A stretch of DNA of 64,000 nt from NCBI GenBank assembly GCA_943846685.1, contig OX044363.1:1765386-1829385 (forward strand). The letters are read 5' to 3'. Shown here piece after piece: positions 240 to 47,970 of this stretch. Source of the DNA: an uncultured Pseudomonadales bacterium. Lineage in GTDB: Bacteria > Pseudomonadota > Gammaproteobacteria > Pseudomonadales > Porticoccaceae. A model generated the notes under the pieces. The model ran no database searches and had not been told where the DNA came from. It saw only the letters and a list, made by a program, of their open reading frames with translations. The translations under genes were made by a program, and so were the position numbers. How positions within the stretch are numbered: the first letter of the stretch is position 1; every line of letters begins with the position of its first letter.

Positions 240-315
240 TCCGCCTTAGCTCAGTTGGTAGAGCAAATGACTGTTAATCATTGGGTCGCTGGTTCGAGCC
301 CAGCAGGCGGAGCCA
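240..315 (+). tRNA. tRNA-Asn (GTT)
   Basis: 76-nt cloverleaf: acceptor TCCGCCT/AGGCGGA, D-arm, anticodon stem ATGAC/ATCAT around loop TGTTAAT, T-loop GGTTCGAGCC, encoded CCA. Confidence 0.97.
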
Positions 316-413: not shown

Positions 414-1479
414 ATGATGCAGTATCTGCCATCGCTCGCAGGCGTTGCGATTATCAGTTTTCTGTTCACCAGAATGCTGATCCCCCTCTCTCATAGCATG
501 GGTCTTCTAGACCGCCCCGACACACGCAAACTACATTTAGGTGCAGTTCCCCTTATCGGCGGCATCTCGATCTATTTATCAGTACTTTTTTGTGCAGTCT
601 TATTTCTCAATCTACCCGAACACTTTATAGGCATCGCCCTTATCTGCGGGTTGGTAACCTTTATTGGCGCTCTCGATGACCGCTATCCGGTTCATCCTAA
701 CTACCGACTCTCTATGCAGTTAATCGCCGGTATCACCATCGCCACCATCGGTGACGCCTGTCTTCGCGATCTCGGCAATCTGGTCGGCTTCGGCACCATT
801 ACTCTCGGCTTTCTGGCCATACCCTTTACCGCCATCACCATTGCCGGTCTGTGCAATGCCTACAATATGGTCGACGGCATCGACGGCCTGGCCGGTTCTC
901 TAACCCTAGTATCCATTCTCGGACTGCTGTTCCTGACCAATGGTCGAGCCGCTGACAATGAAGTCGCCCTGCTCGCCTATATGGCCACCTCAATCGGTGT
1001 GTTTTCTATTCTTTAATTTAAAAATAGGCCCCTTCGCCAAAGTGCAAAATATTTATGGGCGATGCCGGCAGTACCTTTTTGGGCTGCAGCGTGGCGATTG
1101 CAATGATCTATTTCTCCCAGAGCGGAGGACAATGTTTTAAGACCAGCTACCGCCCTCTGGCTGGTGGCCATTCCACTGATGGATATGACCAGCACCATGG
1201 TGCGGCGTATGAGCTAAAGGTAAGTCGCCCTTCCATGCCGATCGAACCCATCTGCACCATATTCTGATGCGCGGTGGACTCAGTCAGCAACAGGCTCTGA
1301 TAACCATTATTTTAGCTTCTGCTGGTATCGCCGGAATCGGCATTTTACTGGAGAGAGTATGGCCTCAGAACGACGCCATCTCGTTTGGATTGTTTGTTCT
1401 AACTTTCGCCCTGTACTTTAAGTTTATCTTCAAACACGCGTTTAAATTTGCCAGAGCTATTCGGCGCTTAAATAGCTAG
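414..1479 (+). pseudogene. wecA: WecA/MraY-family UndP-HexNAc-1-P transferase, interrupted by four +1 frameshifts (pseudogene or sequencing error)
   Basis: Motifs LDRP..RKLH, GALDDR, NAYNMVDGIDGL in 414..1016. KIFMGDAGS, PATALWLVAIPLMDM and PFHADRTHLHH lie in successive shifted frames. Removing one base near 1004, 1040, 1140 and 1210 gives one ~353-aa ORF. Confidence 0.85.
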
Positions 1480-2359: not shown

Positions 2360-3649
2360 TTATTGGTTAATAAAATTTAAGGTGTTAAAGCCAAGTCGTT
2401 TCTTGACCATATAAACCGCAAGAAGATTTTGACTACCAATGGCTATGGCTGTTGATAGAGCAGCCCCTGTAGCGCCATACAGCGGAGTCAAAATAAAACC
2501 AAGGACCAGAGCTAGAGGTCCGGTAAAGAAAACCAGATTGCGCATATCCTTCTCATGGCCGGTCATATTCAGGAGGTAACCCACCGAGCCAGTCACAACA
2601 TTCACAAACTGACCAACCACAAAGATTCGCAACAAATCTGCGCCCTGACGATATTCTTCGCCAAAAAGGCCCATTAAAAATTCAGCAAACAAAAGAACAA
2701 AAATTAAAATCGGTGTGGCGACAGAGACCATAATGCGGGTACAAAACAACGAAGCAGCTCTAAGGTCATCATTGTTATTAAGCTTGGCACTAGCCGCAAA
2801 ACGAGGGGCTGCGACCATATTCACCGCAACCAGCACAAAACTTGTCAATGCACCCAGGCGCATGGCGACAGATAAAAATGCGATCTCCTCTGCAGGCAAA
2901 AAACCACCGGCAATCAACTGTCCAGACCATTGCACCAGCAGCATCATAACCATCACCGTACACAGCGGCTTGGCACTTTCTACCAGTGCACCCTGTTGAG
3001 AGTAATCCGCTTTAATGTGCCAGTGACCCTGCTTGATCCAGTACCAGAGACCTATAACCAGTGTGATAAAAGCGCCGATAGAAAATACTGCAGCAACATT
3101 GGCCGCCGATAAAACAACGCCAAAGGCTATAGCCACAACAAGCGTCAAGATCACCAACAACTGCGTGGATATATTGAGAACAAAGGCCGATATTAGAGGT
3201 TTATGAACCCCCTGAAAGGCGTAGCCAAGTAATTGGTAAAGCGCAAAGCAAGGTATACCCAGAGCGAATGCAGCAAGAACTGAATGCAGCCCGGCACTCT
3301 CAAACAGCATATCCCCAAATTGACTGCTGACAACATACAGTAAAACCGCACATAGGCAGGCAATTAAGAGTGTCGCTTTAAAACCCGCTCTAAAGACACC
3401 GTTGATAACGCCCCAATTATTCTCCGCTAAAAACCCACCAATAAAACGGATAAAAGCCGTTGTAAGCCCCAGAGTTGATAATGTTCCCAATACCGTAAAT
3501 ATCGCAAAAGCGAAAAAGAACAGACCAGCTTGATCAACCGCCAAATTGGTAGAGATCACAAAAGTCATACATATCCCGGAAGCTGCACCAATAACGCGGG
3601 CAGCGAAGGCTAAACCGGAACTCTTTAAGAAAGACTTTTTACCCTGCAC
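2360..3649 (-). CDS. wzx: Wzx-type polysaccharide flippase (MOP superfamily)
   Basis: 429 aa with ~12 hydrophobic segments; C-terminal LNMTGHEK..LTPLYGATGAALST pattern; operon context. Confidence 0.8.
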   Translation of the reverse strand: MQGKKSFLKSSGLAFAARVIGAASGICMTFVISTNLAVDQAGLFFFAFAIFTVLGTLSTLGLTTAFIRFIGGFLAENNWGVINGVFRAGFKATLLIACLCAVLLYVVSSQFGDMLFESAGLHSVLAAFALGIPCFALYQLLGYAFQGVHKPLISAFVLNISTQLLVILTLVVAIAFGVVLSAANVAAVFSIGAFITLVIGLWYWIKQGHWHIKADYSQQGALVESAKPLCTVMVMMLLVQWSGQLIAGGFLPAEEIAFLSVAMRLGALTSFVLVAVNMVAAPRFAASAKLNNNDDLRAASLFCTRIMVSVATPILIFVLLFAEFLMGLFGEEYRQGADLLRIFVVGQFVNVVTGSVGYLLNMTGHEKDMRNLVFFTGPLALVLGFILTPLYGATGAALSTAIAIGSQNLLAVYMVKKRLGFNTLNFINQ

Positions 3650-3669
3650 AACAATAAGCTCTATATGTT

Positions 3670-4554
3670 CTAAATTGATTTTAGTTTTGAAATAACCACT
3701 TTAATCGCAGACATCCAATCGCTAGATTGAACGGCCCAATCATTCATAATCTTGCCTGAGTCCAATGCCGAGAACGCAGGTCTTTTAGCCGGCGTGGGGA
3801 ACTCAGCAGTACTAATTGGCGTTAGTGCTGGACCACTGGAAATTAGATCGGCTGCCACCGCCTGTTCAAAAATAGCATCGGCAAAACCAAACCAGGTCGT
3901 CGATTGATCACCACAGTAATGATACAAACCCCAGTTCTGATTATTAGACTCAATACCTGACAGAATCTTCACAATAGCCTTAGCAATATCCTGCGCATAG
4001 GTCGGGCAACCAATTTGATCAGACACAATACTCAGGGAATCACGACCCTCAGCCAGGCGCAGCATGGTCTTTAAAAAGTTATTGCCATACTCACTAAATA
4101 CCCAGGCGGTTCGTATAATCAGGTGATTACAGCCAGATTCCTGAACTGCTAGCTCACCCAACAGCTTAGTTTGCCCATAGACACCCTGAGGATTGGTTAC
4201 TGCCGCTTCACCATATGAGATTGTCGCCTCGCCATCAAACACATAGTCAGTGGAAACATGGACCAGCACAGCGCCAATTTCAGCGCATACATTGGCAACA
4301 TTACCCACCGCGAGATTATTGATCAGATTTGCCTGCTCAGTCTCATCCTCAGCCTTATCCACTGCCGTGTAAGCGCTGGCATTAATAACCACATCCGCCT
4401 CGAGAGACACCAGTGCCGCTCTTGTCGTCTCAAAATCCGCAAGATTGATTTCGGCCCTTGAAGCCAGGGTAACCGCATGATTCGTACCGGCTAACTGATC
4501 CGCTAAACAGCGGCCAAGTTGACCATTGGCACCGAGAACTAAAACTTTCATCAT
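3670..4554 (-). CDS. rmlD: dTDP-4-dehydrorhamnose reductase (copy 1)
   Basis: GANGQLG, AYTAVDKAE, STDYVFDG, YGQTK motifs; ATGA overlap with the rmlC stop. Confidence 0.95.
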   Translation of the reverse strand: MMKVLVLGANGQLGRCLADQLAGTNHAVTLASRAEINLADFETTRAALVSLEADVVINASAYTAVDKAEDETEQANLINNLAVGNVANVCAEIGAVLVHVSTDYVFDGEATISYGEAAVTNPQGVYGQTKLLGELAVQESGCNHLIIRTAWVFSEYGNNFLKTMLRLAEGRDSLSIVSDQIGCPTYAQDIAKAIVKILSGIESNNQNWGLYHYCGDQSTTWFGFADAIFEQAVAADLISSGPALTPISTAEFPTPAKRPAFSALDSGKIMNDWAVQSSDWMSAIKVVISKLKSI

Positions 4555-5084
4555 CGAATATCCGCCAAAAATGGCGCTGACTGGTCCTTCTGAGACAGCA
4601 GAGGATTGGACTCTGGCCATGTAATGCCCAGATCAGGATCACTCCACAGAATGCTGCCTTCGTCCGTGGGATCGAAGTAGTCCGTACACTTGTAGACAAA
4701 GTCCGCAATATCCGAGAGAACGACAAAACCATGGGCAAAGCCTGGCGGCACCCAAAATTGTTTTTTGTTTTCTTCCGATAAGATAACGCCTTCCCACTGA
4801 CCGAAGGTACTCGAGCCCTCGCGGATATCAACAGCAACGTCAAATACCTCACCTTTAACTACGCTAACCAGCTTGCCCTGTGGCTTGGTCTTTTGAAAAT
4901 GCAAACCACGCAAAACAGATTTCGCCGAGCGCGAGTGATTATCCTGCACAAATGGCAGACTGATACCCGCCTCGTCTCTGTATCTGGACAACTGAAAAGT
5001 CTCGAGAAAAAAACCACGCTCATCACCAAATATTTTTGGCTCAATAATCACACAATCTTTTAATTTAGTTTGTATTACCTTCAC
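4551..5084 (-). CDS. rmlC: dTDP-4-dehydrorhamnose 3,5-epimerase (copy 1)
   Basis: [34 protein letters not shown] motifs. Confidence 0.96.
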
Positions 5085-5965
5085 TTATAACCACCTGCTA
5101 CCTTTCTTAAATACTGTCCATATGACGTTTTCTTAAGTGCATCCGCCTGACTGAGAATCCCTTCATGGGATAGCCAACCCTGATGGAATGCAATTTCCTC
5201 CAGACAGGCAACTTTCAAGCCCTGCCGGTGTTCAACTGTTTGAACAAACTGTCCCGCCTCAAGCAGGGAATCATGTGTGCCTGTATCCAGCCAGGCAAAA
5301 CCACGACCCAATAGCTGAACACCCAGATCACCTCTGGCCTGATAGGCATTGTTAACATCAGTGATTTCAAGCTCACCACGAGCAGAGGGAATAACTGCCT
5401 TGGCAATTTCTACTACATCATTGTCGTAAAAATAAAGCCCGGTTACCGCATAGCTTGACTTGGGGGTTTCCGGTTTCTCTGCAATAGATAAAACCTTCCC
5501 CTCATTATCAAACTCAACAACACCAAAGCGCTCAGGATCAGGGACATGATAACCAAAGATGGTTGCACCCTTATCCTTACTAACAGCGGCTTTTAAATTT
5601 TCAGAAAAATGTTGGCCGTAAAAAATATTATCACCAAGAACCAGAGCAACATTGCTATCGCCGATAAACTCCTCACCGAGAAGAAATGCCTGCGCCAATC
5701 CATCCGGGCTTGGCTGGATTGCGTATTCGATCTCAATGCCGAACTTTGATCCATCGCCCAACAGTTTCTGATAACTGGCAATATCATCGGGCGTAGAAAT
5801 CACAAGAATCTCTTTTATGCCCGCCAACATTAAAATCGAGATAGGGTAATAAATCATCGGCTTGTCATAGATAGCCAATAACTGCTTGGAGACACCAATA
5901 GTAATGGGGTGCAACCTGGTACCTGAACCTCCGGCTAATACAATTCCTTTATATTTAACTGTCAA
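5081..5965 (-). CDS. rmlA: glucose-1-phosphate thymidylyltransferase (copy 1)
   Basis: [38 protein letters not shown] motifs. Confidence 0.97.
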
Positions 5966-5996
5966 AATAACCTACCTGTCTCAAGTAATAATTAAT

Positions 5997-7061
5997 CTAT
6001 TTCGCTATTCTGCGAAGCAACATTTCTTTCAGGTTTTTAGTCCGCTTAAAATTCATAAGCAGCGCTAAAAAGCCCTTAACAAAAAGAGAACAACCACTGC
6101 CTAGCAAGCTCAACCAAGACCCTTTTATATCCTCAACCACATAGCCATATTCGTGCATCTCAGCTTTAGCGACACGCTGGCATATATCAATCTCAGCGTT
6201 TGACAGCCCGCCCTTTAGCCATGCTTGAGCGCGGTTTTTATCAATGCCAATCTCTTCGGGCTTATCAGTACCAGCCGATGAACCCACCTGTGGCACATCC
6301 AGCATAGAGCTTTCAAAATCCATATTCGCAAAAGCACAGATACCCCGAACAGTTTCTTCAGGGCTGGATAACAGATCCTCAAAACGGATAGACATAAACC
6401 GCTCTCGGCCTTTAAATTTAGAAGCTATTCGAACCGCTGAAACCCAGAGCTTGGTGGTAATTAATGGATGATAATTTGTCCAGGAACGAAACGCCTCATT
6501 GCGTGGAATAGTTGAGCCACCCAGAAACATTCGGCGCCATTTGTTTTTCTGGGAAACTAAAACATCACGGGGATCACGAACTAAATTAACAATCACCGCA
6601 TTGGGAAACTCATCCAGTATCTCATTCAGGAAATAGAGATAACCGGGAGTCTGCTCGCAGGGAATTTCTCTATCCTGGAGATTGGACTCGTAGTGCAAAA
6701 AATTGCGGTAAACATCAATGGGGTTGCGCTCGGCACTCTGCCCCAAAAAAGCCACTGCCTCTTCTTCATAGGCAGCAGTGTTGGCCTTGGAAAATAAGCT
6801 TTCACGAGACGAAGTAAACAGGCGAACCAATAAGGTAACCAGCTTATCCTGACTCCACTGAGAGCCGTCAGTAACCGCCCCGGCATCTACCTGATGATCA
6901 AAAAAGTGCAGCTCTCCAAAGGTATAGACCTTTGAATTTTGGCCGATAATACGACCCAGCATAGTCGTACCGCTGCGGCTATTGCCAACAACGAAAACCT
7001 GCTTTCTTTGATCAGTGCTGTCTATATTTTGCATACAGCTGATATCCACACTGTTGCGCAT
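5997..7061 (-). CDS. PAPS-dependent sulfotransferase 1 (inserted between rmlB and rmlA)
   Basis: 5'-PSB loop VGNSRSGTTML, EQTP, 3'-PB LVRDPRDVLVS, IRFEDLLSSPE. Start may be the ATG at 7034. Confidence 0.88.
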   Translation of the reverse strand: MRNSVDISCMQNIDSTDQRKQVFVVGNSRSGTTMLGRIIGQNSKVYTFGELHFFDHQVDAGAVTDGSQWSQDKLVTLLVRLFTSSRESLFSKANTAAYEEEAVAFLGQSAERNPIDVYRNFLHYESNLQDREIPCEQTPGYLYFLNEILDEFPNAVIVNLVRDPRDVLVSQKNKWRRMFLGGSTIPRNEAFRSWTNYHPLITTKLWVSAVRIASKFKGRERFMSIRFEDLLSSPEETVRGICAFANMDFESSMLDVPQVGSSAGTDKPEEIGIDKNRAQAWLKGGLSNAEIDICQRVAKAEMHEYGYVVEDIKGSWLSLLGSGCSLFVKGFLALLMNFKRTKNLKEMLLRRIAK

Positions 7062-7092
7062 TCAACACTAGAAGCGCTCAAAAAGGCGAGAT

Positions 7093-8157
7093 TCACGAAT
7101 CTTCACCTATTCTTTCCAACCTGTAGGCACCGGATAATACGCGCTTCCACCAGTCCTCATTATTGATGTACCAGACTACGGTTTTACGTAATCCAGTCTC
7201 GAAAGTTTCTTCAGGAACCCAGCCCAAATCCTCACCTATCTTCGATGCATCGATAGCATAGCGAGTGTCATGACCAGGGCGATCCTTCACAAAAGTGATC
7301 AGATCGCGGTAATTAGCGACACCCTCAGGTTTAGCGGGAACCAGTTCTTCCAAAAGTTCACATATAGTCTCAACCACTTCTATATTAGTCTTTTCATTGT
7401 GGCCACCAATATTATAGGTCTCGCCGAGCTTACCTTCCTGAGCAACCTTAAATAGCGCTCTTGCATGATCTTCCACATACAGCCAGTCTCGAATCTGCAA
7501 CCCGTCACCATAAATAGGCAGAGGCATTCCGTGGAGCGCATTCAATATAACGTGAGGTATCAGCTTTTCTGGAAAGTGATAAGGACCATAGTTGTTTGAA
7601 CAGTTAGTAATAATAACCGGCAGTTTATAGGTTCGACCCCAGGCTCTTACAAGATGGTCTGAACTGGCTTTACTCGCAGAATAAGGTGAAGACGGCGCAT
7701 AGGGCGTAGTCTCTAAAAATAGATCATCAGTGCCTTCTAAATCGCCATAGACCTCATCGGTAGAGATATGGTGAAAACGAAACGCTGCCTTTTCACTATC
7801 CGACAACCCTTCATAATAGGCACGGGACTGATTGAGCAGGTTAAATGTGCCCATAATATTTGTGCGCATAAAATCGCCCGGACTATCGATAGAACGATCC
7901 ACATGACTCTCAGCAGCCAGATGCATAACTATTGACGGACGATATTTGGTAAACAGTCCAGCAACGGCAACCTCATCACAAATATCCACTGTCTCAAGAC
8001 TATAGCGCTCACTGGAATCAAAACCGCCCAGAGATTCCAAATTACCGGCGTATGTAAGCTTATCAACATTGACCACATTGAAATCAGACGTATTTAAAAT
8101 GTTTCTTACAACAGCGCTGCCAATAAAACCGGCGCCACCGGTTACTAAAATATGCAA
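7093..8157 (-). CDS. rmlB: dTDP-glucose 4,6-dehydratase (copy 1)
   Basis: [48 protein letters not shown] motifs. Confidence 0.97.
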
Positions 8158-8187
8158 GAGATAACCCTCAGATAAAAATTAAAATTG

Positions 8188-9327
8188 TTAAACCAGGTCT
8201 GCTTTTTCCACATCAATGGATTCAGAACCTGAATGCTTTAAAAGTATGTTTTCATACTGTGAAAGAATACCGTCCCACTGAAATTCCTCGACAAACTTTC
8301 CTTTTGAGCAAGTTCGTTTATCCAGCACAAAATCATCGTCCATATAGCCATTTTCAAAGAAATCACTCAGATCATCGATTCCTGAAAAATAGTGCGCCGC
8401 ATCACCGGCAACCCAGCGATTAAACTTATTGTCATGGGCAATAATGGCACAGCCGGCACCCATAGCCTCAACCAGCGAGGGATTAGTGCCGCCAACCTGA
8501 TGACCATGAATATAGAAACGCGAGAAAAAACGCAGCGCGCTCACTACTGCAAAGTCATAAATAGCACCGGGGAAAACCACATCATCACTTGCAGCATCAA
8601 TGACTGCCTTATGGTAAGGATTAGAATCCGGCAAAAATTTCCCTAAAACTAAAAGTTTGTGATCACGCTTTGTTTTTGAAAATGCGCTGACAATTTCTAA
8701 AAAAGAATTTTCCGGCTCAGGACGAGCAATGATGATTGAATATTTATTTTTCACCACGCCATATTTCTCAATCAGAGATTCATCCGCTTCGGTTACCTCA
8801 GCGGCCCCATAGGGAATCATGGTGATCTTTTTACGCCCAACACGAGTAGCAAGATGATCTTCAATACAAGGATGATCAGCAATAAGGTGATTGCCGAACC
8901 AGCATCCAAAACGCTCGTTCATCCAAAACCATAGTTTGGCAACATAACCCCACTTCTGCCGCTTCCACTCAATACCGTCCATATTGATGACATTAACTTT
9001 TCTAAACAGACGTAAAAATAAACAAAATATAGCGGTGTTATAACCTAGAGTTAAATAAGTGGCCGAATGACGTAACGAATGAAGGGTAGCCTTCAAGTCA
9101 AAAATAACGGTCCCCAGTGCACCGGACGTAGAAACAGGGATATTAATACGCTTAACCCCACGCCATTCGTCCTCATAAATCTTTCCTGAGCCGTCTACCT
9201 GACAATAGACTGTCACCTTCCAATCACGCTTCAAGAGATACTCAGATAAGTACTGTGCAAATGTCTCAAAACCACCATGATTTGCCGGGATACCACGAAT
9301 ACCCAACACAACAAGATCTTTACTCAT
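8188..9327 (-). CDS. GT4 glycosyltransferase, WchF/RgpA-like putative rhamnosyltransferase
   Basis: N-terminal GIRGIPANHGGFETF, INMDGIEWKRQKW, ARPEPEN, GGTNPSLVEAM. Confidence 0.8.
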   Translation of the reverse strand: MSKDLVVLGIRGIPANHGGFETFAQYLSEYLLKRDWKVTVYCQVDGSGKIYEDEWRGVKRINIPVSTSGALGTVIFDLKATLHSLRHSATYLTLGYNTAIFCLFLRLFRKVNVINMDGIEWKRQKWGYVAKLWFWMNERFGCWFGNHLIADHPCIEDHLATRVGRKKITMIPYGAAEVTEADESLIEKYGVVKNKYSIIIARPEPENSFLEIVSAFSKTKRDHKLLVLGKFLPDSNPYHKAVIDAASDDVVFPGAIYDFAVVSALRFFSRFYIHGHQVGGTNPSLVEAMGAGCAIIAHDNKFNRWVAGDAAHYFSGIDDLSDFFENGYMDDDFVLDKRTCSKGKFVEEFQWDGILSQYENILLKHSGSESIDVEKADLV

Positions 9328-10312
9328 AACCGAGTTCTCCCATCAATCTCATAAATTCATCTTTAATTTCAATGGGCAGGTCAACAGGTTGACTGGCCCT
9401 CGGTGAGATCAACTCCTGTCGACAATATGTTGAAAAATCAGCGTCTTCAGACAATTCGCAAAACTTTAAAACGTCCTCCCTGTAAGACTCATCACGAACA
9501 TAACTCTCGTAACGAACCGGAATCATATTTACACTTTCGTCCTGCTGCAGAGCCAGGCCCTGCTTCATGGTTAAAATCCATTCGACGGCAGCCATATGCA
9601 CATGATCGGTATACTTTTTGATTGCTTCAGTACTTTTAGATAAAACCGGATCGCGACTTAATACCTGTTCACAGAGCAACTCCCACTTTCTATTGTTAAC
9701 GCCCCACCAGTCATGGACATCTCCAGCCACATCAAAACCGATACGCTCCGACCATCGCTGAATAGAATTGCAGGTATCCCAGCCATTTCGGTACAAGAAA
9801 AGGAATTTGGCATCAGGAAAAATCTTCTCGACAAAAGAAGTTCTAAATATCAACTCCGGATATTTATCGACCAAACGAGTTCTCGAGGTCAATTTCAGGT
9901 AGCAACCAATAATTGAAGAGAGCTTTTGTTTAATACTGGTACTGGCATCGTCGGCAGTAAGGTAGTAATTGCCAGGTTTATCCTGATAACTACCAATAAC
10001 GTCCTCACCCTTATGGGCATAACTCCAAAGTGCTTTTGGTTCATTTAAAAACCCGACGTCATCATGCATTCCCAATGTTATACCCAGCATTGTTGAGCCA
10101 CTGCGGCCAGTGCCAAGAATAAAAATCGGGCGATCAACTCGGGTCTTAAGTTTTAAGGATGCCTGAACCCTATAAAGAAAAAAGACAACTTGATTGAACC
10201 AACGCCCCTTTGTTGTTAAGGGTCGACCTTCATAGAGCAAATAACTTATAAACCTTACAAGAGTCTTCTTTTTGGACAATTTAACAAAGGTATTATCTAA
10301 TTGTGCAACCAC
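9320..10312 (-). CDS. PAPS-dependent sulfotransferase 2
   Basis: PIFILGTGRSGSTML, LNEP, VDKYP, LYRNG.D, VRYES motifs. Confidence 0.85.
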   Translation of the reverse strand: MVAQLDNTFVKLSKKKTLVRFISYLLYEGRPLTTKGRWFNQVVFFLYRVQASLKLKTRVDRPIFILGTGRSGSTMLGITLGMHDDVGFLNEPKALWSYAHKGEDVIGSYQDKPGNYYLTADDASTSIKQKLSSIIGCYLKLTSRTRLVDKYPELIFRTSFVEKIFPDAKFLFLYRNGWDTCNSIQRWSERIGFDVAGDVHDWWGVNNRKWELLCEQVLSRDPVLSKSTEAIKKYTDHVHMAAVEWILTMKQGLALQQDESVNMIPVRYESYVRDESYREDVLKFCELSEDADFSTYCRQELISPRASQPVDLPIEIKDEFMRLMGELGYE

Positions 10313-10588
10313 TGATCATTTCTCTTAGTTGTAAATAGTTAGAGTTAACAGAAGCTTTACTACCCCAATAGCGAGACAGCGCATACAGGTAGGAGATCAC
10401 CTACAAGTTGAGCCAGAACTTACTATTGGTCGTTAAAAAAAGGCTTTAGCTAACATAGAACGCGGGTAAATTCACTGAGCTATAGTTTTTTAATATTGGC
10501 AGAAACTTTAAAGTGCCAGCAGGGAAAACCTATAGAAAATGACTTACAAATCGAACTAGAACGTTCTTTTTTTATAATTATAATTTTA

Positions 10589-11512
10589 TTATCTAGCAGA
10601 GGAGCCTGTGAGGACTTCTCTTAACTGTACATATTGTGCATTAACAGAAGCTTTAAAATCCCTATAGGGGGACCAATCAAAGTCTTCTGTAACCTTAGAG
10701 ATATCCAAGACAACTTCCTTCACGTCAAAGCTTCTCTTTGGCGTGTAGTTGACTCGAACCTCTGCAGGAGAAATATCTTTAACAACATCTATAATTTGAT
10801 TGACCGACATACCCACGCCACAGCCAGCGTTGTAGGTAGAAGACTTCTTAAAATCCACACAGACTGCAATTAAATCAGCCAAATCTTTTACATAAAGGTA
10901 ATCCCGAATAGATTCCCCATCACCAAAGATTGATGTGGTTCTCTCCTGAATCGAATTTTTAAGCAGAGTTGAAATAATTCCCTGCGCACCGGAGTGGGAC
11001 TGCCCTTCCCCGAAGACATTGGAAGGTCTAAGAATCAGCGAAGAAACACCCCAAATAGAATCACTGATATTGAGGAACTTCTCAATAGCAACCTTGACCA
11101 CGCCGTAACAGGAAATAGGGCTCAAAGGATGCTCTTCGTCGACTGGGCTAGATTGAGGATTGCCATAGACCGTGCCGCCAGAAGACAGATAAATCAACTT
11201 GGGTACCTTCATCTTTTGCATCAGGCTTAATAATTCAAGGGTATTAACCAGATTTGACTGGATATCGGCAACCGGATCCAGCTCGCTAGAAGATGGAACC
11301 GTGCTGCTAATACAGTGCACAACCAAATCTACATCAACAAGCGCCTCAGCTAATTTTGCATGATCTGAGAAGTCACCTTTAATCACAGTACAATTTTTGT
11401 TGCTAATATCACCGGAGCGAAAAAAAGCTTTAACAAAATGTTCTGTATTGGTTAATCGATCGACAACATGAGAGCCGATAAAACCTTTTGCTCCCAGAAC
11501 CAGGATATTCAT
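10589..11512 (-). CDS. NAD-dependent epimerase/dehydratase (extended SDR, GalE-like)
   Basis: GAKGFIG, LSSGGTVYG, YGVVK, RDYLYVKD. Confidence 0.88.
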   Translation of the reverse strand: MNILVLGAKGFIGSHVVDRLTNTEHFVKAFFRSGDISNKNCTVIKGDFSDHAKLAEALVDVDLVVHCISSTVPSSSELDPVADIQSNLVNTLELLSLMQKMKVPKLIYLSSGGTVYGNPQSSPVDEEHPLSPISCYGVVKVAIEKFLNISDSIWGVSSLILRPSNVFGEGQSHSGAQGIISTLLKNSIQERTTSIFGDGESIRDYLYVKDLADLIAVCVDFKKSSTYNAGCGVGMSVNQIIDVVKDISPAEVRVNYTPKRSFDVKEVVLDISKVTEDFDWSPYRDFKASVNAQYVQLREVLTGSSAR

Positions 11513-12723
11513 TTAATAATACTCTTGTAGTTGTCCATAATGTTTTTGTAGAAAATATCGTCAGTAAAATTGTTTTCAACATAGGTCCGAGCCAACTCGC
11601 CCATCTCAGCGCACTTGCTGTCATTCGACCAAAGTTCGTTCATTGCATGAACCAAACTTGCAGCATTATTCGGGTCAAAGACAATTCCTTTATCATCCCC
11701 TATCAACTCGGGTATGCCACCGCGATCAGAGCCAATAACCGGCTTACCACAGGCAAAAGACTGGAAAATCACATAAGGAAAGTTTTCATGCCAAAGGGAT
11801 GGAATAATAACGAACTTGGCATTGAGCAAAATCGCCTTGAGCTCTTCACCCCATTTAGCGCCAACAAACTCAATATTGTTTATACCTTCATTGCTGCAGC
11901 GACTGCGCAGCAGCTCTAGATCTGGCCCATCACCAACAATCTTGATAACAACATCAGACTGTTTTGCAGCATCTAATATTCGATCAACACCCTTTTCCGA
12001 GATAATTCGACCGAAATATAACGCGTAATCACCAGAGTATTTGGGCTGATAGTCTCCAGAGTCAAAGGGGTTCTGCAAAACGCCATAATTAACATCTTTA
12101 TCCGCCCAAAACTCCTTGGTCTTATTCAACATAAACTGGCTTGCGAAAAGATATTTGTCGACACAGGTCTCGTAAATACCCTTATATTTGTGCACATATG
12201 ACTCGACCATAGAAGCCGTTGAGAAAATAAGAGAGTCCTTGCAGCACTTTTTTAAAGCCGCATTATAGAAGCGCTCACCTTTACAGGCCTCACACAGCTT
12301 ATCGCCATCGAATAATTTGTAATTTGGACAGATATGCTTGTAATCATTACATGACATTATGACTGGAACATTTCGCTCTTTAGCCGCCTCAAGCACGGAA
12401 GGCGTTAAATGAACATGAACAGCAAATGCATGAACCACATCTGGCTTAAACTCATCTATAGCTTCAAGCATTTTTCGCTTTTTACTTCCTGAAAAGAAGA
12501 TATCTATAGAACCGATCAGCTTTTTAAACAAACCATCACTTGCATAGTCCGGGGCAGGAACAGAATAAACTGGATCCCCTGTCGAAGCATTATCATCATC
12601 GTAAGTAGTAAAGAAGGCGACCATATGGCCATTCTCCTTTAAGACTCTAGCAACCTCGAAATAAAACAGTTCTGCGCCACCAGTTAACCTGTGGAACTTA
12701 TGAACCAATAAAATTTTTAACAT
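11509..12723 (-). CDS. GT4 family glycosyltransferase
   Basis: GGAE N-terminal loop, YFGRIISEKG, PSLWHENFPYVIFQSFACGKPVI. Confidence 0.88.
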   Translation of the reverse strand: MLKILLVHKFHRLTGGAELFYFEVARVLKENGHMVAFFTTYDDDNASTGDPVYSVPAPDYASDGLFKKLIGSIDIFFSGSKKRKMLEAIDEFKPDVVHAFAVHVHLTPSVLEAAKERNVPVIMSCNDYKHICPNYKLFDGDKLCEACKGERFYNAALKKCCKDSLIFSTASMVESYVHKYKGIYETCVDKYLFASQFMLNKTKEFWADKDVNYGVLQNPFDSGDYQPKYSGDYALYFGRIISEKGVDRILDAAKQSDVVIKIVGDGPDLELLRSRCSNEGINNIEFVGAKWGEELKAILLNAKFVIIPSLWHENFPYVIFQSFACGKPVIGSDRGGIPELIGDDKGIVFDPNNAASLVHAMNELWSNDSKCAEMGELARTYVENNFTDDIFYKNIMDNYKSIIK

Positions 12724-12760
12724 TCACCTCAATCCTAAACAATTATTTATGTGCAGTAAT

Positions 12761-14002
12761 TTAACGTAACATCATTCTTTTTTTCTTCGGATTTAGCCTG
12801 TTACCTTCCCTGACACTCAAAATAATTAAGAATAGAATCATCACAATCAGTGAATAAAAAACATCCGTAAAGACATTTCTGAAAAAGCTGATATATAAAA
12901 TCACTAGCAATAAAATCAGGATATCTGGACCCTTCAATGATCTTCTACCTATAAAATAAAAGCCTATCCCGGCCATCAAAAATGCTAAGAACCCTCCTAA
13001 AAAGCCATACTCTCCCATAAGCCCGCCTAACCCACTGTCGTAAATCCCAGTGCCATCAATCACCGTAGCCCAGTGGGCAATACCTACAACATTGTAAACA
13101 GGCGAACCTAGCGACATAGAAGAACCAAAGGTTCCACCACCTGCGCCAAAAGGAAAATTATCTAATGCGAGCTGAACACCCGAGCTAAACATCGCAATCC
13201 TGATATATCTGGACTGCCCATCTAAGGTAGATTCTGCAGCACCAAAAGTAGTGCCGATATCACCAAATAAAACAATAAATATGATTAATGGCACTGCCAC
13301 TAGAGGTAGCACAAGGAGGCTTCTGGCAAAGCTATACCTCATAGAACTTAGATAAAAGAAAAGGATAGGGGCAAGTAAAATAAACGATCTGGAATTTGTT
13401 AAAAGCAGCGCTGTTAGACAGATTAGAACATAAAAAAATCTGCGCTCAACAAACCAGAAATACAATGCGAACGCAACTGCCCAGGCACCACAGCGATTAG
13501 CATTAAGACTGAATCCGACCAAGCGGTCTGTTTTTACGCCAAAATTAGTATCTCTTAGCAAGCTGATAAAAAAATCAGTAAATATGATATTGAGAATTAT
13601 GCCAAGAACGTAAATAAAGAAGCCTAGCTTTATAAACGGGCTAACAATCTCTGGATCCAGGTTTCTTGCCAAATACATAACCAAAAAGAGCTTGGAGAAA
13701 AGTATCGTACTGACCAGCGAAACCCATATCCCCCTAGAATAAGCGCCTAATTCGGAGAGTGTAAAGAAAACCAAAACGACTAGACCAAACAAAACAAGGA
13801 CGGTTTTAGCTTTTATCGCCAGAATGTCTTTTAGTATAAATATGCCTGTCAAAACTGCGAAATAAGCATTACTTAACAGGATTATTTGATTGAAGTTTGT
13901 TGCACGTGCGACAAATATTGCGACCATATTCACCGCTAAAAACACCAGAATTAAGACGCCCAATCTTTGATCAGAGCGAAATAAAACAGATTTTAAAATC
14001 AC
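12761..14002 (-). CDS. wzy: Wzy-like polysaccharide polymerase / O-antigen ligase-like membrane protein
   Basis: 413 aa, AT-rich, ~11-12 TM segments, TNSRS motif and a large late periplasmic loop; located among the GTs. Confidence 0.65.
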   Translation of the reverse strand: MILKSVLFRSDQRLGVLILVFLAVNMVAIFVARATNFNQIILLSNAYFAVLTGIFILKDILAIKAKTVLVLFGLVVLVFFTLSELGAYSRGIWVSLVSTILFSKLFLVMYLARNLDPEIVSPFIKLGFFIYVLGIILNIIFTDFFISLLRDTNFGVKTDRLVGFSLNANRCGAWAVAFALYFWFVERRFFYVLICLTALLLTNSRSFILLAPILFFYLSSMRYSFARSLLVLPLVAVPLIIFIVLFGDIGTTFGAAESTLDGQSRYIRIAMFSSGVQLALDNFPFGAGGGTFGSSMSLGSPVYNVVGIAHWATVIDGTGIYDSGLGGLMGEYGFLGGFLAFLMAGIGFYFIGRRSLKGPDILILLLVILYISFFRNVFTDVFYSLIVMILFLIILSVREGNRLNPKKKRMMLR

Positions 14003-14859
14003 GCCTGAGCCTCAGACCAGGATTTTATAATCTCAGCTGTTTTAGCATCTATCTCAGAAGCAGAACCCACTAACTCTTTATATATAAAGCTCCGAAGGAA
14101 AACAGAAAAGGGCTTAAGCTTCTTTTTGATCGCTGGGAACATGATCATTTTTTGCGAAAGCTTACGGCGAACTACATTATAAGTTCGGGACAGCGACTGT
14201 GAGCGAGCAACCTTAGTCCTATTCTCAACACCCAAAGACTGGCGATCAATAGCAACATCTTTCAGCCCCAAAAAGCGAGTAACAGTATCAACACAGCGAT
14301 GCGGATCTTTTTTAAGGACTTCAAAATCAAGAACTAAAAGACGATCCCCATAAGCGGCCTTCCAGCGCTCCAAATATACATCCGTTCGACAATGATCCAG
14401 AGCACGGAATTGAACCGGAGTCTGAGAAGTAACCTTATTCTGATCCTGAAATAAAACATAATCACTCAAAGTCATATCCGATGGAATACGGCCACTCTGC
14501 TTAAAAAACCTAAAAGCGGAAACAACACGCTCAATTGGATCACGTAATATCACCACCGCTCTGGCATTAGGGAGCTTTTCTGAGGCTTCTAATGCGTTTT
14601 GGTTGTACAGATAATCAGGTGTGGCATCCATTAAGACCGAATTATCCGGCTTCTCAAAAAAACGCATATATTCATCTAAATTTGAGCCGTCATATACAAA
14701 CGGACGCTCCAATGGATACGAGTGATCTAAAAAGAAACGCGCTTCCTTAAGGCTTGAACCACAGATGTCCGGATGCTTAAGCAACCACTTAAAAAGCGAT
14801 GACGTACCCGCTTTAGGTTGCCCAACTATGAATAGATAATTTTTATTTGAAAGGTTCAT
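13999..14859 (-). CDS. PAPS-dependent sulfotransferase 3 (heparan-sulfate/NDST-like fold type)
   Basis: IVGQPKAGTSSL, LKEARFF, DATPDY, LRDPIERVVSAF motifs. Confidence 0.88.
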   Translation of the reverse strand: MNLSNKNYLFIVGQPKAGTSSLFKWLLKHPDICGSSLKEARFFLDHSYPLERPFVYDGSNLDEYMRFFEKPDNSVLMDATPDYLYNQNALEASEKLPNARAVVILRDPIERVVSAFRFFKQSGRIPSDMTLSDYVLFQDQNKVTSQTPVQFRALDHCRTDVYLERWKAAYGDRLLVLDFEVLKKDPHRCVDTVTRFLGLKDVAIDRQSLGVENRTKVARSQSLSRTYNVVRRKLSQKMIMFPAIKKKLKPFSVFLRSFIYKELVGSASEIDAKTAEIIKSWSEAQA

Positions 14860-15132
14860 TTAACATCAAGGCAACCGAATTAAACTCTCGAGTAGACTCA
14901 GTCATTTTTTGCCTTTCAGATAATTTTAAATTTAGAGATATATTGAAAGACAACAGTCAAAACAGTCGGGAAAGCCCCATATGTTCAGCGGTCAAACAAT
15001 GAATCAATTAACCTCAACAGCAAGGTTAACCTAAAATAAGCAATCTCTATGCCAACAAAGACAGCGCTTAAGACAGGCAATTCAACGGGAAAATAATAAG
15101 ATTTAGAAATGACAAATTTATTGCAGGCAGGC

Positions 15133-16305
15133 CTAAATAGCAGCGGAATGCTGAATCGATCGACGACCAAGACCTGTTAGATAAAACACAAAACCGTACA
15201 TAAGACATTCTAGAGCAAAGAAATAACCCCACTCATTGCTGGAACAGCTCCACCACTGGTTAAGGTAGCCAATCAGAACAAGACCTGAAGTCGAGCCTGA
15301 AATCAATAGTCCGGTGAGGGAATTAGAAGCAACCTGAGAACGGACTCTGGAACGCAAGAAGAAATGAATTCTATTGTGAAGGTGTTCATTATCTGGTGAA
15401 AATGGCGAACGGCCCACCAGCATTCTTCTTAATATGCTAACAAGGAAATCAACACAGGGGTAAGCAAATAATGCAGCCAGGAAGCCCAAAGAGAACACCC
15501 CAGCATTAAAGAACACCAGACCATAGATAGCCAAAGCTGCACCTAACCCATAGGTACCCGCATCACCCAGGAACAGACGACCAGTAACAACATTGAAAAA
15601 CAGGAATACCCCGCAGGCCGCCATAAAGCCCTCATCAACCACACTACCCGTCTGTATAGAGAACAGAAGGATAGAGAAGAATGCGATCCCAGAAATAAGA
15701 CCATTAGCCCCATCAGCCATATTTACGGCATTGATAAAGCCAACCAGAAATATAATTACAACAACCGCGCCGACAATGGGCAATGAGAGAACATAGTCAA
15801 GCCCGGCAAACCCTATGGATTCCGGAACCAGATCAGGCCAGACAAAGATAATGCCAGCGAAAAGGGCAAATTTTAGAGCGAGACGAATAGTCGGAGAGAG
15901 AAAATCAGCCTTTAAATCCTCTGCAAGCCCCATAGCCGCACAGCACATAATAGCGAAGATACCAAACCTGTGATTGCCATAAGTTTCAAGGTCATTGAGA
16001 AAAGAGGTACTGTTTTCAAAGTAGTTAGCCGCAAAAAACACCAGCACAGACACCATCACCGCCAAACCACCCAGCCGAGAAGATGTGCGAGCGCTAATCC
16101 CGTGCTTACTGGCCGAGTCTGTTCCCGACTGCTGAAGCGAAAACCATTGAAGAAGAAGGGCAACAATCGAACCCAACACACCAAAGCAAATGCCAGCAAT
16201 AACCACTACTATTGAAAGATGTACAAAGTCCTTTTTGGATAGAAGTAAATTAGAGATAAAAACCACCCAAATACATTTTAAGAAACAGAACCGCAGACCG
16301 CTCAA
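15133..16305 (-). CDS. second MraY/WecA-family polyprenyl-phosphate HexNAc-1-P transferase
   Basis: SRLGG, GLAEDL, NAVNMADGANGL, LFLGDAGTY, PDNEHLH motifs; start uncertain. Confidence 0.85.
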   Translation of the reverse strand: MSGLRFCFLKCIWVVFISNLLLSKKDFVHLSIVVVIAGICFGVLGSIVALLLQWFSLQQSGTDSASKHGISARTSSRLGGLAVMVSVLVFFAANYFENSTSFLNDLETYGNHRFGIFAIMCCAAMGLAEDLKADFLSPTIRLALKFALFAGIIFVWPDLVPESIGFAGLDYVLSLPIVGAVVVIIFLVGFINAVNMADGANGLISGIAFFSILLFSIQTGSVVDEGFMAACGVFLFFNVVTGRLFLGDAGTYGLGAALAIYGLVFFNAGVFSLGFLAALFAYPCVDFLVSILRRMLVGRSPFSPDNEHLHNRIHFFLRSRVRSQVASNSLTGLLISGSTSGLVLIGYLNQWWSCSSNEWGYFFALECLMYGFVFYLTGLGRRSIQHSAAI

Positions 16306-16570: not shown

Positions 16571-16600
16571 AAAAAAGCCCGGCTGTTTAGCCGAGCTTTT
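16571..16600 (-). terminator. intrinsic terminator downstream of the gmd-fusion ORF
   Basis: Minus strand AAAAGCTCGGC-TAAACA-GCCGGGCTTTTTT. Confidence 0.75.
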
Positions 16601-16742: not shown

Positions 16743-17660
<918 letters not shown>

Positions 17661-17697
17661 TTAATCCGTTTTCAAACTTCCATTTTTAACTACAGTT

Positions 17698-18027
17698 TTA
17701 TTGCTTTTGCACTTCACCCTTCAAAGACCGAATCTCCTTCTGCAGCCGCTTATACTCATCCTGCTTATACTTCAAAAACCGCTTGGCCAGTCTCGCCTTC
17801 TCGCGCAGGCCTTTACCGGTCAAGACGTACATAGAGCCGATCTTGTTATCTGATTTTTGGAAGTGTTCGATTTTTAGACAGCCAACATCGACCAGGGCTT
17901 TAACCACATAATGGCCTTTGCCGAGGCTGACACCGAGGTTTTCGGCGATCTGGCGCTGGGTTAGTTCGGGTTGTTTTTGAAGAAGCTTGAGGGTGCGGTA
18001 ATAGTATTCCTGGGTGTCCATAAGCAT
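17698..18027 (-). CDS. EPS-associated MarR-family transcriptional regulator
   Basis: PELTQRQIAENLGVSLGKGHY.VKALVDVG, Y.LT.KG, AKRFL..K..EY..L pattern. AGGAGG RBS 7 nt upstream of the ATG at 18027. Confidence 0.85.
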   Translation of the reverse strand: MLMDTQEYYYRTLKLLQKQPELTQRQIAENLGVSLGKGHYVVKALVDVGCLKIEHFQKSDNKIGSMYVLTGKGLREKARLAKRFLKYKQDEYKRLQKEIRSLKGEVQKQ

Positions 18028-18042
18028 AACTTTTCCTCCTGA

Positions 18043-18054
18043 CAGGCTACCGCA
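18043..18054 (-). promoter_or_regulatory. ops-like (RfaH loading) element
   Basis: TGCGGTAGCCTG vs consensus GGCGGTAGnnTG, immediately upstream of the AGGAGG RBS; rfaH is encoded in the same region. Confidence 0.55.
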
Positions 18055-18209
18055 GGAGCCGGTCATGAGCTCCTGCTTTTATATGACTTGGGTCTGTGTT
18101 TTGACCCGATCGTACAGTCCGTGAACGATGTTTTAAAAGTAGACCAAACTGGTGCAGTTGCCAGTTTATTTGCCGATTTAATTAACTGTTGTTATGCCGT
18201 TGTTATAGA

Positions 18210-19200: not shown

Positions 19201-19380
19201 TAGACCCCAGCCTTCGCTGGGGTGACGTTCCGTTGTTGGGGTGACAACTCTCATGTTATTTCGACTAGCGGGAGAAATCTTATGGAGGTCCCTCGTCGCT
19301 TCGCTCTGTCGGGATGACAGTGTTAATAGAGTGCTCTGTCGGGATGACAGTATTGACAGGGTGCTCTGCTGGGATGACAG
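19201..19380. repeat. cluster of REP-like palindromes and a 30-bp tandem repeat
   Basis: Hairpin ACCCCAGC-CTTC-GCTGGGGT (19204-19223); GTTATTTCGACTAGCGGGAGAAATCT (19255-19280); 36-bp element 19285-19320; GCTCTG(TC/CT)GGGATGACAG x3 with a 30-bp period. Confidence 0.85.
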
Positions 19381-21278: not shown

Positions 21279-21847
21279 AACTTTGACCCCGGATATAAGT
21301 CTTTAACTTGCTCTTTAAACAGTTCTGCAAAGCTCTGCCCTGCTCTATCTTTATCGGAAAGTATCGGGTTGGTTATCGGCCAGTCGATATTTAATTGCGG
21401 GTCATTCCACAGCAAGCAGCCTTCGTCGCTGGGGTCGTAGTATTCGGTGCATTTGTATTCAAAGTCGGCGCTGTCGGAGGTGACCACAAAGCCATGGGCG
21501 GTGCCCGGGGGCAACCAGAATTGACGGTGATTTTCTTCGGATAGCCAGACGCCGTGCCATTTCCCAAAGCTGGGTGAGTCTTTGCGCAGGTCGACGACTA
21601 CATCAAATACTTCGCCGCGCACAACTCTGACTAATTTGCCCTGGGGTTTGGTTTTCTGAAAGTGCAGCCCACGCAGTACGCCTCTGGATGAGCGCGAGTG
21701 GTTGTCTTGAACAAATGGTAGGTCGTTATGAATTTGTTTCTGGTAGCGCTGGGCTTGATAGGTTTCAAGAAAGAAGCCTCTCGCGTCGCCATAGACTTTG
21801 GGTTCAATTACTACGGCGCCTTGTACGGCGGTTTCAATTATATTCAT
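21275..21847 (-). CDS. rmlC: dTDP-4-dehydrorhamnose 3,5-epimerase (copy 2)
   Basis: [33 protein letters not shown]. Confidence 0.96.
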
Positions 21848-34035: not shown

Positions 34036-34203
34036 GTTTTTTTGTGTACCAGAATTATAATAATTATGCGCGTATCCTACAGAAGGGCAGGTAAAAAAGG
34101 AACCAGAGATAAAACCCAAAAAGCCTATTCTATGGGGGGGGGTAAATGGCCTATTCGAGTACTCAAAAACGTTAATAAAATGCGGCTTATAAAGTTGGCA
34201 GAC

Positions 34204-45718: not shown

Positions 45719-45723
45719 TGTAC

Positions 45724-47943: not shown

Positions 47944-47970
47944 ATCAGAAGGATCACTAATAGCAGAACC

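Follow-up and report, generated by a model that had tools for sequence, protein, structure and literature searches.

To our knowledge, bacterial sulfated polysaccharides for which a structure is available together with a locus are very few, and a regiospecificity has been assigned to almost none of the sulfotransferases (STs) of bacterial polysaccharides. Among the closest described systems, synechan, the exopolysaccharide (EPS) encoded by the xss genes on plasmid pSYSM of Synechocystis sp. PCC 6803, is a Wzx/Wzy product made with two STs and carrying two sulfates per octasaccharide; the system has been genetically dissected, and the deletion of xssE barely changes the EPS (Maeda et al., eLife 2021, PMC8205485). 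The capsule of Vibrio sp. KMM 8419, →2)-α-L-Rha3S4Ac-(1→6)-α-D-Glc, contains one sulfate per disaccharide and is associated with cysNDC, a kps transporter and three ST genes scattered over a 95-kb multi-glycan locus (PMC11641403). The capsule of Cobetia marina KMM 1449, →4)-α-L-Rha2S-(1→3)-β-D-Man6PGro, is encoded by a locus in which ST genes occur next to the rml genes (PMC11766843). The present analysis deals with a stretch of 64,000 nt (the window) from contig OX044363.1 of the assembly GCA_943846685.1, an uncultured Pseudomonadales bacterium of the family Porticoccaceae, and more especially with a polysaccharide cassette containing three ST genes, ST1, ST2 and ST3. Judging from its genes, this cassette probably directs the Wzx/Wzy synthesis of a surface heteropolysaccharide with L-rhamnose in its repeat unit, O-sulfated by three different STs that depend on 3'-phosphoadenosine-5'-phosphosulfate (PAPS). 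The initial annotation of the window considered such glycans as rarely characterised in bacteria, which no longer reflects the literature: sulfated-rhamnose loci and ST-bearing Wzx/Wzy loci have already been published, the window cassette being an uncharacterised further example, and both this very cassette and its ST trio are widespread in marine metagenomes.

The cassette, annotated by Pfam and NCBIfam scans of the open reading frames (ORFs), is taken to extend from 16442 to 1552 on the minus strand and includes the block 2360-14859 to which the initial annotation was devoted. Every ORF between 1552 and 34119 lies on this strand. In the direction of transcription, the genes follow each other in the order WecA-like transferase, ST3, Wzy, GT4 glycosyltransferase, epimerase, ST2, rhamnosyltransferase, rmlB, ST1, rmlA, rmlC, rmlD, Wzx and Bac_transf-type transferase. 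They are tightly packed, with overlaps of 4-8 nt for the pairs ST3/wzy, GT4/epimerase, ST2/rhamnosyltransferase and rmlA/rmlC, the 3' end of ST2 overlapping the start of the rhamnosyltransferase gene by 8 nt. The G+C content amounts to 0.39-0.45 inside the cassette versus 0.47-0.52 in its surroundings. With its single wzx and single wzy, the cassette appears as an operon-like unit of ~15 kb, and a strong terminator-like hairpin, made of a 12-bp stem followed by a T-run (16573-16600, minus strand; consensus scan only), would separate it from the upstream genes.

Exactly three ST genes are detected in the window when family hidden Markov models (HMMs) of our own are run over the whole 64 kb, a result with which the Pfam scans of the remaining large ORFs are consistent. 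ORFs, Pfam and HMMs place them, as initially annotated, at 5997, 9320 and 13999 within a Wzx/Wzy locus, one of them splitting rmlB from rmlA. The latter, ST1 (5997-7061, 354 aa), belongs to the Sulfotransfer_3/_1 group (Sulfotransfer_3 3e-26, Sulfotransfer_1 3e-14) and is located between rmlB (7093-8157) and rmlA (5081-5965). ST2 (9320-10312, 330 aa) is classified as Sulfotransfer_3 (3e-16), and ST3 (13999-14859, 286 aa) as Sulfotransfer_1/_3 (5e-12 and 3e-12, respectively). Both PAPS-binding motifs are intact in all three proteins, the 5'-phosphosulfate-binding (5'-PSB) and 3'-phosphate-binding (3'-PB) motifs consisting of G26-N-S-R-S-G-T-T33 and R162-D-P-R..S170 in ST1, G69-R-S-G-x-T74 and R175-N-G..S183 in ST2, and G13..K16-A-G-T-x-S21 and R106-D-P..R111..S114 in ST3. 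In family alignments comprising 51-121 homologs each, these motifs are invariant or at least 90% conserved, and the 3'-PB motifs align with the same motif in solved enzymes. Among 52 homologs of ST2, 62 positions do not vary, GRSGxT, E91 and R175..S183 belonging to them, and an N-terminal helical extension of ~60 residues is also conserved. Outside the vicinity of the motifs, the three proteins show no resemblance to each other. The ratios of nonsynonymous to synonymous substitution rates (dN/dS), calculated against the orthologs of two relatives, range from 0.06 to 0.33 (0.12-0.14 for ST1, ~0.06 for ST2, and 0.33 for ST3 versus the Porticoccaceae metagenome-assembled genome, MAG, JAQWGK010000008), which indicates that all three are maintained by purifying selection. 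On these sequence grounds, ST1, ST2 and ST3 are distinct, intact and apparently functional STs of the PAPS type.

ST3 belongs to the heparan sulfate type of STs. The strings PKAGTS, KEARFF and RDPIERVVSAF, from which this character had initially been recognized, are literally present in its sequence and, among the PDB sequences, it matches the bacterial protein 3rnl (1.6e-14), the ST domain of NDST1 (5.6e-14) and 3-OST-3 (3e-8). Its PKxGT loop, KE pair and RxPxxRxxS motif align with those of the solved heparan sulfate enzymes, and the catalytic pair K38-E39 is retained by ≥90% of the 95 homologs aligned. ST3 would work like these enzymes, and its substrate need not be shared with them: heparosan or glucosamine is an unlikely acceptor, because no heparosan synthesis (kfi-like) genes were found among the window ORFs scanned. 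The fold of ST3 is judged from these matches to solved enzymes, and those of ST1 and ST2 from AlphaFold (AF2) models, since by sequence the latter two yield only weak matches to solved structures. The models exhibit predicted local distance difference test values of 91 for ST1 and 93 for ST2. Foldseek searches against the PDB retrieve, as top matches, the ST domains of CurM and OLS together with TPST for ST1, and the CurM ST, TPST and Stf1/Stf9 for ST2; the significant matches are all STs (CurM/OLS, TPST1/2, mycobacterial Stf1/Stf9 and 3rnl), with E-values down to 3e-10 and template modelling (TM) scores of ~0.5-0.6. No signal peptide was recognized in ST1, ST2 or ST3; a conserved hydrophobic C-terminal helix (residues 317-335, from hydropathy), which occurs only in ST1 among the three, is probably a membrane anchor. 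A cytoplasmic location, as predicted for the three enzymes, fits the use of cytoplasmic PAPS at the inner membrane face.

The other genes of the cassette are devoted to the synthesis, transfer and export of sugars, and the scans confirm the rml genes, WchF-like rhamnosyltransferase, GT4, epimerase, wzy and wzx that had been recognized initially. The dTDP-L-rhamnose pathway is complete, with strong Pfam matches for RmlA (5081-5965; NTP_transferase 1e-75), the dTDP-glucose 4,6-dehydratase RmlB (7093-8157; GDP_Man_Dehyd 1e-86, Epimerase 5e-68; 98% aa identity to the Porticoccaceae MAG), RmlC (4551-5084; dTDP_sugar_isom 3e-72) and RmlD (3670-4620; RmlD_sub_bind 3e-103). The DUF1972/GT4 protein encoded at 8188-9327 (DUF1972 6e-19) is a Cps2T/WchF-like rhamnosyltransferase, matching NCBIfam NF046071 (beta-1,4-rhamnosyltransferase Cps2T) at 4e-48, with 164 bits, below the equivalog cut-off of 500. 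A GalE-like NAD-dependent sugar epimerase (10589-11512; Epimerase 3e-44; NCBIfam galE 3e-46, below cut-off) is always paired with the GT4 glycosyltransferase (11509-12723; Glycos_transf_1 1e-32), which shares 99-100% aa identity with the MAG (dN/dS 0.009), and the order GT4-epimerase-ST2 is kept in seven related loci. The product of 12761-14002, with ~12 hydrophobic segments and a Wzy_C match at 2.5e-6 (27.8 bits for a gathering score of 31.7), is regarded as the Wzy polymerase by context, its position being conserved among the relatives; a WaaL-like role may also be envisaged for it. The Wzx flippase (2360-3649; MatE 3e-11, above gathering score, and a weak MurJ match; ~12 hydrophobic segments) keeps its position in the TARA scaffold, the Porticoccaceae MAG and the JGI contig described below. 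Two priming transferases, which belong to the cassette in all relatives, occupy its ends: the first gene (15133-16305; Glycos_transf_4 5e-17; NCBIfam ECA_wecA 1e-14, below cut-off) encodes a WecA-like polyprenyl-phosphate N-acetylhexosamine-1-phosphate transferase with 91% aa identity to the MAG, and the last (1552-2352; Bac_transf 6e-25) a small Bac_transf-type polyprenyl-phosphate sugar-phosphate transferase with 89-98% aa identity to its orthologs in the TARA scaffold and the MAG.

One of the primers, the small Bac_transf or the WecA-like enzyme, would load a first sugar phosphate onto undecaprenyl phosphate. The Cps2T/WchF-like enzyme would add L-rhamnose from the dTDP-Rha made by the cassette rmlBACD genes, and the GT4 a third sugar, probably a 4-epimer provided by the adjacent GalE-like epimerase. 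ST1, ST2 and ST3 would then act from the cytoplasmic side and sulfate this lipid-linked unit prior to flipping, at the expense of PAPS supplied from genes elsewhere in the genome, and the resulting anionic unit would be flipped by Wzx and polymerised by Wzy. Export of the polymer, either as a group-1-like capsule or as EPS, would be ensured by the Wzb-Wza-Wzc proteins that the cassette itself encodes in its natural form. Owing to this gene context, a sulfated rhamnose-containing glycan is by far the likeliest product. With a primer and two glycosyltransferases, the repeat unit would consist of at least three sugars and thus carry up to ~1 sulfate per sugar. In this respect, the initial count of only two glycosyltransferases is correct for Leloir enzymes within 2360-14859 and leaves aside the two priming phosphoglycosyl transferases that flank this block; the short repeat unit deduced from STs outnumbering glycosyltransferases ignored these primers, and has to be replaced by at least three sugars and a ratio of ~1:1. 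Dense multi-sulfation is plausible and the polysaccharide is probably sulfated at several positions, both the sulfated sugars and the number of sulfates per unit being predictions from the gene set.

The same cassette occurs, gene for gene, in the Porticoccaceae MAG JAQWGK010000008 (94-95% nt identity), in a TARA Oceans scaffold (67-89% aa identity) and in a JGI metagenome contig (69-80% aa identity, from homolog tables), the gene set and order being identical across these relatives and the overall aa identity ranging from 67 to 99%. A tRNA-Asn (240-315, plus strand; ARAGORN) marks the conserved right-hand boundary of the cassette; this flank is common to the relatives wherever DNA is available, including the MAG and the TARA scaffold. 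At near identity (up to 100%), the cassette was retrieved from at least 20 marine metagenome runs covering several years. In more distant loci, the core GT4-epimerase-ST2-rhamnosyltransferase(-rmlBACD) is retained, the other genes being variable. Examples are Marinobacter nitratireducens, with cysD nearby, and the Porticoccus sp. MAG GCA_041603575.1 (2338-15501), which combines four STs and a GINT1_N-like protein with an ST2-rhamnosyltransferase-rmlBACD core; further carriers of the core belong to Francisellaceae, Thiodiazotropha, Plasticicumulans, Methylococcales and Rhodobacter capsulatus DSM 1710.

Taken individually, the three STs are widely distributed. The homolog search yielded 2,036 proteins for ST2, 1,225 for ST1 and 102 for ST3, ST2 relatives being encoded in 369 species-representative genomes, and an exhaustive search delineated for ST3 a superfamily of ~18,000 clusters at 50% identity, of which 77 are found at E ≤1e-30. 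Co-occurrence was counted over the best 80 ST2-family loci, a phylogenetically lopsided set dominated by Poribacteria with a few cyanobacteria: in 54 of them both ST1-like and ST3-like genes lie within 10 kb of the ST2-like gene, and an ST1-like gene stands directly upstream of it in 55. The ST1-ST2-ST3 trio is therefore a recurrent combination and no peculiarity of this window. It is possible, but doubtful, that the three enzymes represent a conserved and horizontally shared "tri-sulfation module" that would introduce a multi-sulfated motif of defined pattern into glycans assembled by Wzy in the phylogenetically distant Porticoccaceae, sponge-symbiont Poribacteria and pleurocapsalean cyanobacteria. 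The Poribacteria loci are arranged in the order epimerase-flippase-ST-ST-Wzy-x-ST-ST, followed by secreted sulfatases. On the Poribacteria chromosome OY282383.1 (7218-21047), for instance, a Wzx/Wzy locus with four ST genes precedes two secreted sulfatases with dockerin and Por-secretion-tail domains, and this arrangement is conserved over dozens of genomes, the synthesis and the trimming of sulfated glycans being encoded adjacently. Rhamnose as the acceptor of ST2, a proposal suggested by gene adjacency, was dropped: the link holds in Gammaproteobacteria but fails in Poribacteria and cyanobacteria, a rhamnosyltransferase at ≥45% identity being present in 12 of the 80 ST2-family loci.

A number of observations weigh against a multiply sulfated, rhamnose-containing Wzy product. 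The literature search disclosed no solved glycan structure from an organism with this cassette. The nearest solved relatives of ST1 and ST2 are polyketide and protein-tyrosine STs, not carbohydrate enzymes, and the putative polymerase is assigned on a sub-threshold Wzy_C match. As initially reported for cysDN and cysC, PAPS genes are missing from the window, both in Pfam scans of all large ORFs and in tblastn searches with CysD, CysN and CysC of the Pseudoalteromonas locus discussed below. Four runs labelled "metatranscriptomic" hold the locus at a flat, DNA-like depth, the same 12.7-kb contig being present in DNA runs of the study, and these runs were rejected as a proof of transcription on both accounts. 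In addition, a 6.2-kb block encoding wecA2-wzb-wza-wzc is absent at 14870/14871, where the alignment with the MAG displays a clean gap, and a gene flanking the cassette is frameshifted. Finally, the number of ST genes need not equal the number of sulfates, as illustrated by the three ST genes and single sulfate of Vibrio sp. KMM 8419 (PMC11641403). The initial interpretation of the region is supported in part: its gene annotation is borne out and a sulfated rhamnose-containing glycan is the likeliest product, but a count of STs gives no count of sulfates, and the window copy is devoid of wzb-wza-wzc.

Among the alternatives, the one that survives best, even if we consider it as rather unlikely, is a lightly sulfated glycan with at most one sulfate per repeat, in which one or two of the STs would be redundant, conditional, sub-stoichiometric or devoted to the glycan of the neighbouring locus. 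Besides the mono-sulfated disaccharide of the Vibrio strain, the slight effect of the xssE deletion on synechan (PMC8205485) speaks in its favour, and a second polysaccharide locus, with a second rml set, Wzz, Wzi and an 845-aa outer membrane polysaccharide export protein (OPX), is located immediately upstream in the window. However, the three STs belong to the same operon-like cassette, in which wzx and wzy are each present once, four lineages with aa identities as low as 67% have retained the ST set, each ST under purifying selection, and the three subfamilies are associated in most of the ST2-family loci counted above. Both this retention and this co-occurrence argue for a joint, non-redundant action of the three enzymes.

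A cassette crippled or re-routed in the source genome, unable to export a capsule by machinery of its own for want of wzc, wza and wzb and leading to improper polymerisation or to a diversion of the repeat units towards the neighbouring Wzz/OPX or, as O-antigen, towards the lipid A-core, appears improbable. The polysaccharide co-polymerase and the OPX are represented in the cassettes of the Porticoccaceae MAG and the TARA scaffold by Wzc and Wza, accompanied by an LMWPc phosphatase; according to Pfam, the block concerned encodes a second WecA-like enzyme, the low-molecular-weight phosphatase, Wza and the tyrosine kinase Wzc. All of these are absent from the window's cassette, in which only a junction remnant (14860-14905, minus strand; from the alignment to the MAG) subsists, made of the last 11 nt of wzc and the first 35 nt of the second wecA-like gene. 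Elsewhere in the window, two Wzz-type co-polymerases, Wzi and the 845-aa OPX are available 3-17 kb upstream, and the frameshift in the flanking wecA-like gene points in the same direction. In contrast, contigs from at least five public runs, which match the window flanks without any mismatch (over 12.7 kb in two of them), continue into wzc and wecA2 as in the MAG. The junction words of 14870/14871 were found in no indexed public run, and among the raw reads of three 2026 seawater runs, of which 3% each was sampled, none fell on the junction region. Since public contigs carry the block and no run contains the junction, the natural cassette would possess its own group-1-type export machinery, and the gap is more likely a rare variant or an assembly artefact than the state of the population, bearing in mind that contigs can hide rare variants. 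That at least one ST hitch-hikes in the locus and sulfates a non-glycan acceptor (lipid, small metabolite or protein tyrosine) is most improbable: ST1 and ST2 are structurally nearest to CurM/OLS and TPST, and the ST2-family genes of Poribacteria and cyanobacteria usually occur without a nearby rhamnosyltransferase or rml genes, but in every locus examined the STs are embedded among Wzx, Wzy and glycosyltransferase genes, ST2 is translationally overlapped with the rhamnosyltransferase, and a TM score of ~0.5 with 14-19% identity to the TPST and CurM structures corresponds to a superfamily-level resemblance.

With regard to the supply of PAPS for the predicted multiply sulfated glycan, the Pseudoalteromonas genome GCA_000813065.1 is informative, since cysD and cysN, as well as an SLC13 permease and cysC, are found on the flanks of its core, which ties the core module to PAPS supply. 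The window encodes a DASS/SLC13-type anion permease with two TrkA_C domains (29283-31052, minus strand; CitMHS 1e-68, TrkA_C, Na_sulph_symp 1e-4, and DASS 2e-27, below cut-off), located between a phosphomannomutase gene and the second Wzz gene. In the Pseudoalteromonas locus, a permease of the same architecture separates wzx from cysC, and the two proteins are only 32% identical. Speculatively, the window permease may import sulfate for PAPS synthesis; as an established sulfate importer it was dropped, in view of the 32% identity and of an NCBIfam match below cut-off.

The window copy of the cassette exhibits several peculiarities. The frameshifted gene, a WecA-like (Glycos_transf_4) gene of the opposite strand, is split in three ORFs (414-1016, 1055-1267 and 1267-1479, plus strand), with the Pfam match on the first one; it is intact in the TARA scaffold and the MAG (348-360 aa), and public contigs differ from the window by 1 nt at 1006, 1039 and 1213, so that either a pseudogene or indel errors may be considered. 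Between the epimerase and ST2 genes, an AT-rich non-coding spacer of 276 bp (10313-10588), absent from the MAG and the TARA scaffold, ends in a degenerate direct repeat of the epimerase 3' end (10291-10377 versus 10587-10673, 71% identical). Public contigs cross this spacer with 0 mismatches, which shows that it is real in the population; it may correspond either to a small mobile element or to a recombination junction. Upstream of the cassette, a chimeric short-chain dehydrogenase/reductase gene (16743-17657, minus strand) displays a split Pfam match and associates the N-terminus of a GDP-mannose 4,6-dehydratase (NCBIfam gmd 7e-30 on residues 6-87) with the C-terminal two-thirds of an HpnA-like epimerase (residues 70-247) that is intact in the MAG. 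The homology to the MAG begins at ~17451, within this gene, and public contigs cover 17138-17724 without differences, confirming the chimera. The latter looks like a recombination scar at the left edge of an imported cassette, which would have replaced, in what looks like a serotype switch, an earlier GDP-mannose-based cassette beside the conserved Wzz/second rml/Wzi/OPX/RfaH/phosphomannomutase region. The CpsG-type phosphomannomutase gene upstream (27744-29111) may have been left over from that former pathway for GDP-mannose.

Concerning the neighbouring genes, a MarR-family EPS-associated regulator (17698-18066; TIGR04176 5.5e-37, above cut-off) is encoded between Wzz and the chimeric gene. 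The second complete rml set (19280-22740) is arranged in the order rmlB-D-C-A, with a G+C content of ~0.51, GC and AT skews opposite to those of the cassette despite the same strand, and 66-67% nt identity to the cassette rml genes. The segment 23046-27710 encodes Wzi and the unusually long OPX of 845 aa, with four SLBB domains, an RfaH gene lying directly upstream. The RfaH-dependent ops/JUMPstart element GGCGGTAG has two exact matches in the 64 kb, none of them in a plausible leader, and this count does not exceed that of shuffled sequences. The polysaccharide region ends upstream with a 658-aa protein (32143-34119) that shows only faint DCC1-like and SdpB-like matches. Elsewhere in the window, an ordinary-looking glycogen cluster (44249-63660) comprises glgA, glgB, glgC, GH57, malQ and two phosphorylase-family genes, including one of the DUF3417 type, together with a PAS histidine kinase and a LuxR-type regulator. 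Among genomes, the best matches of GlgB reach only 58-59% identity and belong to several gammaproteobacterial families, so that, in the present analysis, the taxonomic placement is based on the nearest relative of the cassette, the Porticoccaceae MAG.

Taking into account its compactness and the existence of cultivable carriers of its sub-versions (Pseudoalteromonas, Marinobacter nitratireducens, Rhodobacter capsulatus DSM 1710), the cassette offers a tractable system to approach the specificities of the three STs, and a candidate set of parts for the enzymatic sulfation of rhamnose-containing glycans. It also points to bloom-associated Gammaproteobacteria as producers of sulfated glycans, and not only as degraders. 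If the tri-sulfation module should prove true, abundant free-living bacterioplankton would represent an unrecognised source of densely sulfated polysaccharides of the rhamnan-sulfate or ulvan-like type in seawater, with a bearing on marine carbon and sulfur cycling, on the defence against phages and grazers, and on the mimicry of algal or host glycans.

Compared with the known systems, the cassette shares with synechan the interleaving of ST genes among glycosyltransferase, wzx and wzy genes and the use of STs from distinct subfamilies; the synechan product contains both rhamnose and sulfate, with a sulfate stoichiometry that roughly matches the number of STs. In contrast, the xss genes are cyanobacterial and plasmid-borne, and encode 8 glycosyltransferases for 2 STs, whereas the window cassette accounts for ~3 transfer steps and 3 STs; xss is devoid of rml genes, and the cassette of XssQRS regulators. 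No homolog of the STAND/OmpR-type XssQ occurs beside the cassette, the nearest regulator being the MarR_EPS protein. At the sequence level, the STs are only remotely related: ST1 is 21% identical to XssE (7e-12), ST3 is 26% identical to XssA over a stretch of 113 residues, and no meaningful match is obtained for ST2. The cassette would thus work like xss and is not an xss-type member. With Vibrio sp. KMM 8419 and Cobetia marina, compared on the basis of their published descriptions, it has in common the marine gammaproteobacterial host and the co-location of rml and ST genes, the polymers of both strains containing sulfated L-rhamnose. These two capsules depend on ABC transporters (kps) and are encoded by composite loci of 70-95 kb with second copies of cysNDC, whereas the window cassette is compact and Wzx/Wzy-dependent and lacks PAPS genes within 64 kb; no ABC-transporter or kps-type domains were detected among the ORFs scanned across the window.

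The closest parallel in gene order is found in Pseudoalteromonas GCA_000813065.1 (ST2 ortholog WP_082014406.1/ATG59255.1), where the succession Wzy-GT4-epimerase-ST2-DUF1972 rhamnosyltransferase-rmlBACD-phosphoglycosyl transferase-Wzx is the same, with aa identities of 60% for ST2, 65% for the rhamnosyltransferase and 62% for GT4. This locus, however, has neither ST1 nor ST3, a Sulfotransfer_2 enzyme and a GT2 occurring instead, and possesses cysD and cysN at one end, and the SLC13-type permease and cysC at the other. As for ST3, it resembles NDST1, 3-OST-1/3 and the bacterial 3rnl by its 5'-PSB loop (PKxGT), its catalytic KE residues and its 3'-PB motif (RxPxxRxxS), with E-values of 1e-14 to 3e-8, and differs by the absence of a Golgi-type membrane anchor and of a deacetylase domain, with ~25-30% identity; its acceptor is presumably a lipid-linked bacterial oligosaccharide, in place of heparosan. 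As far as can be judged from its genes, the cassette thus obeys the same principle as the systems described so far and is set apart from them by its Wzy dependence in a gammaproteobacterial host, its compactness, its high number of STs and the presence of an enzyme of the heparan sulfate type.

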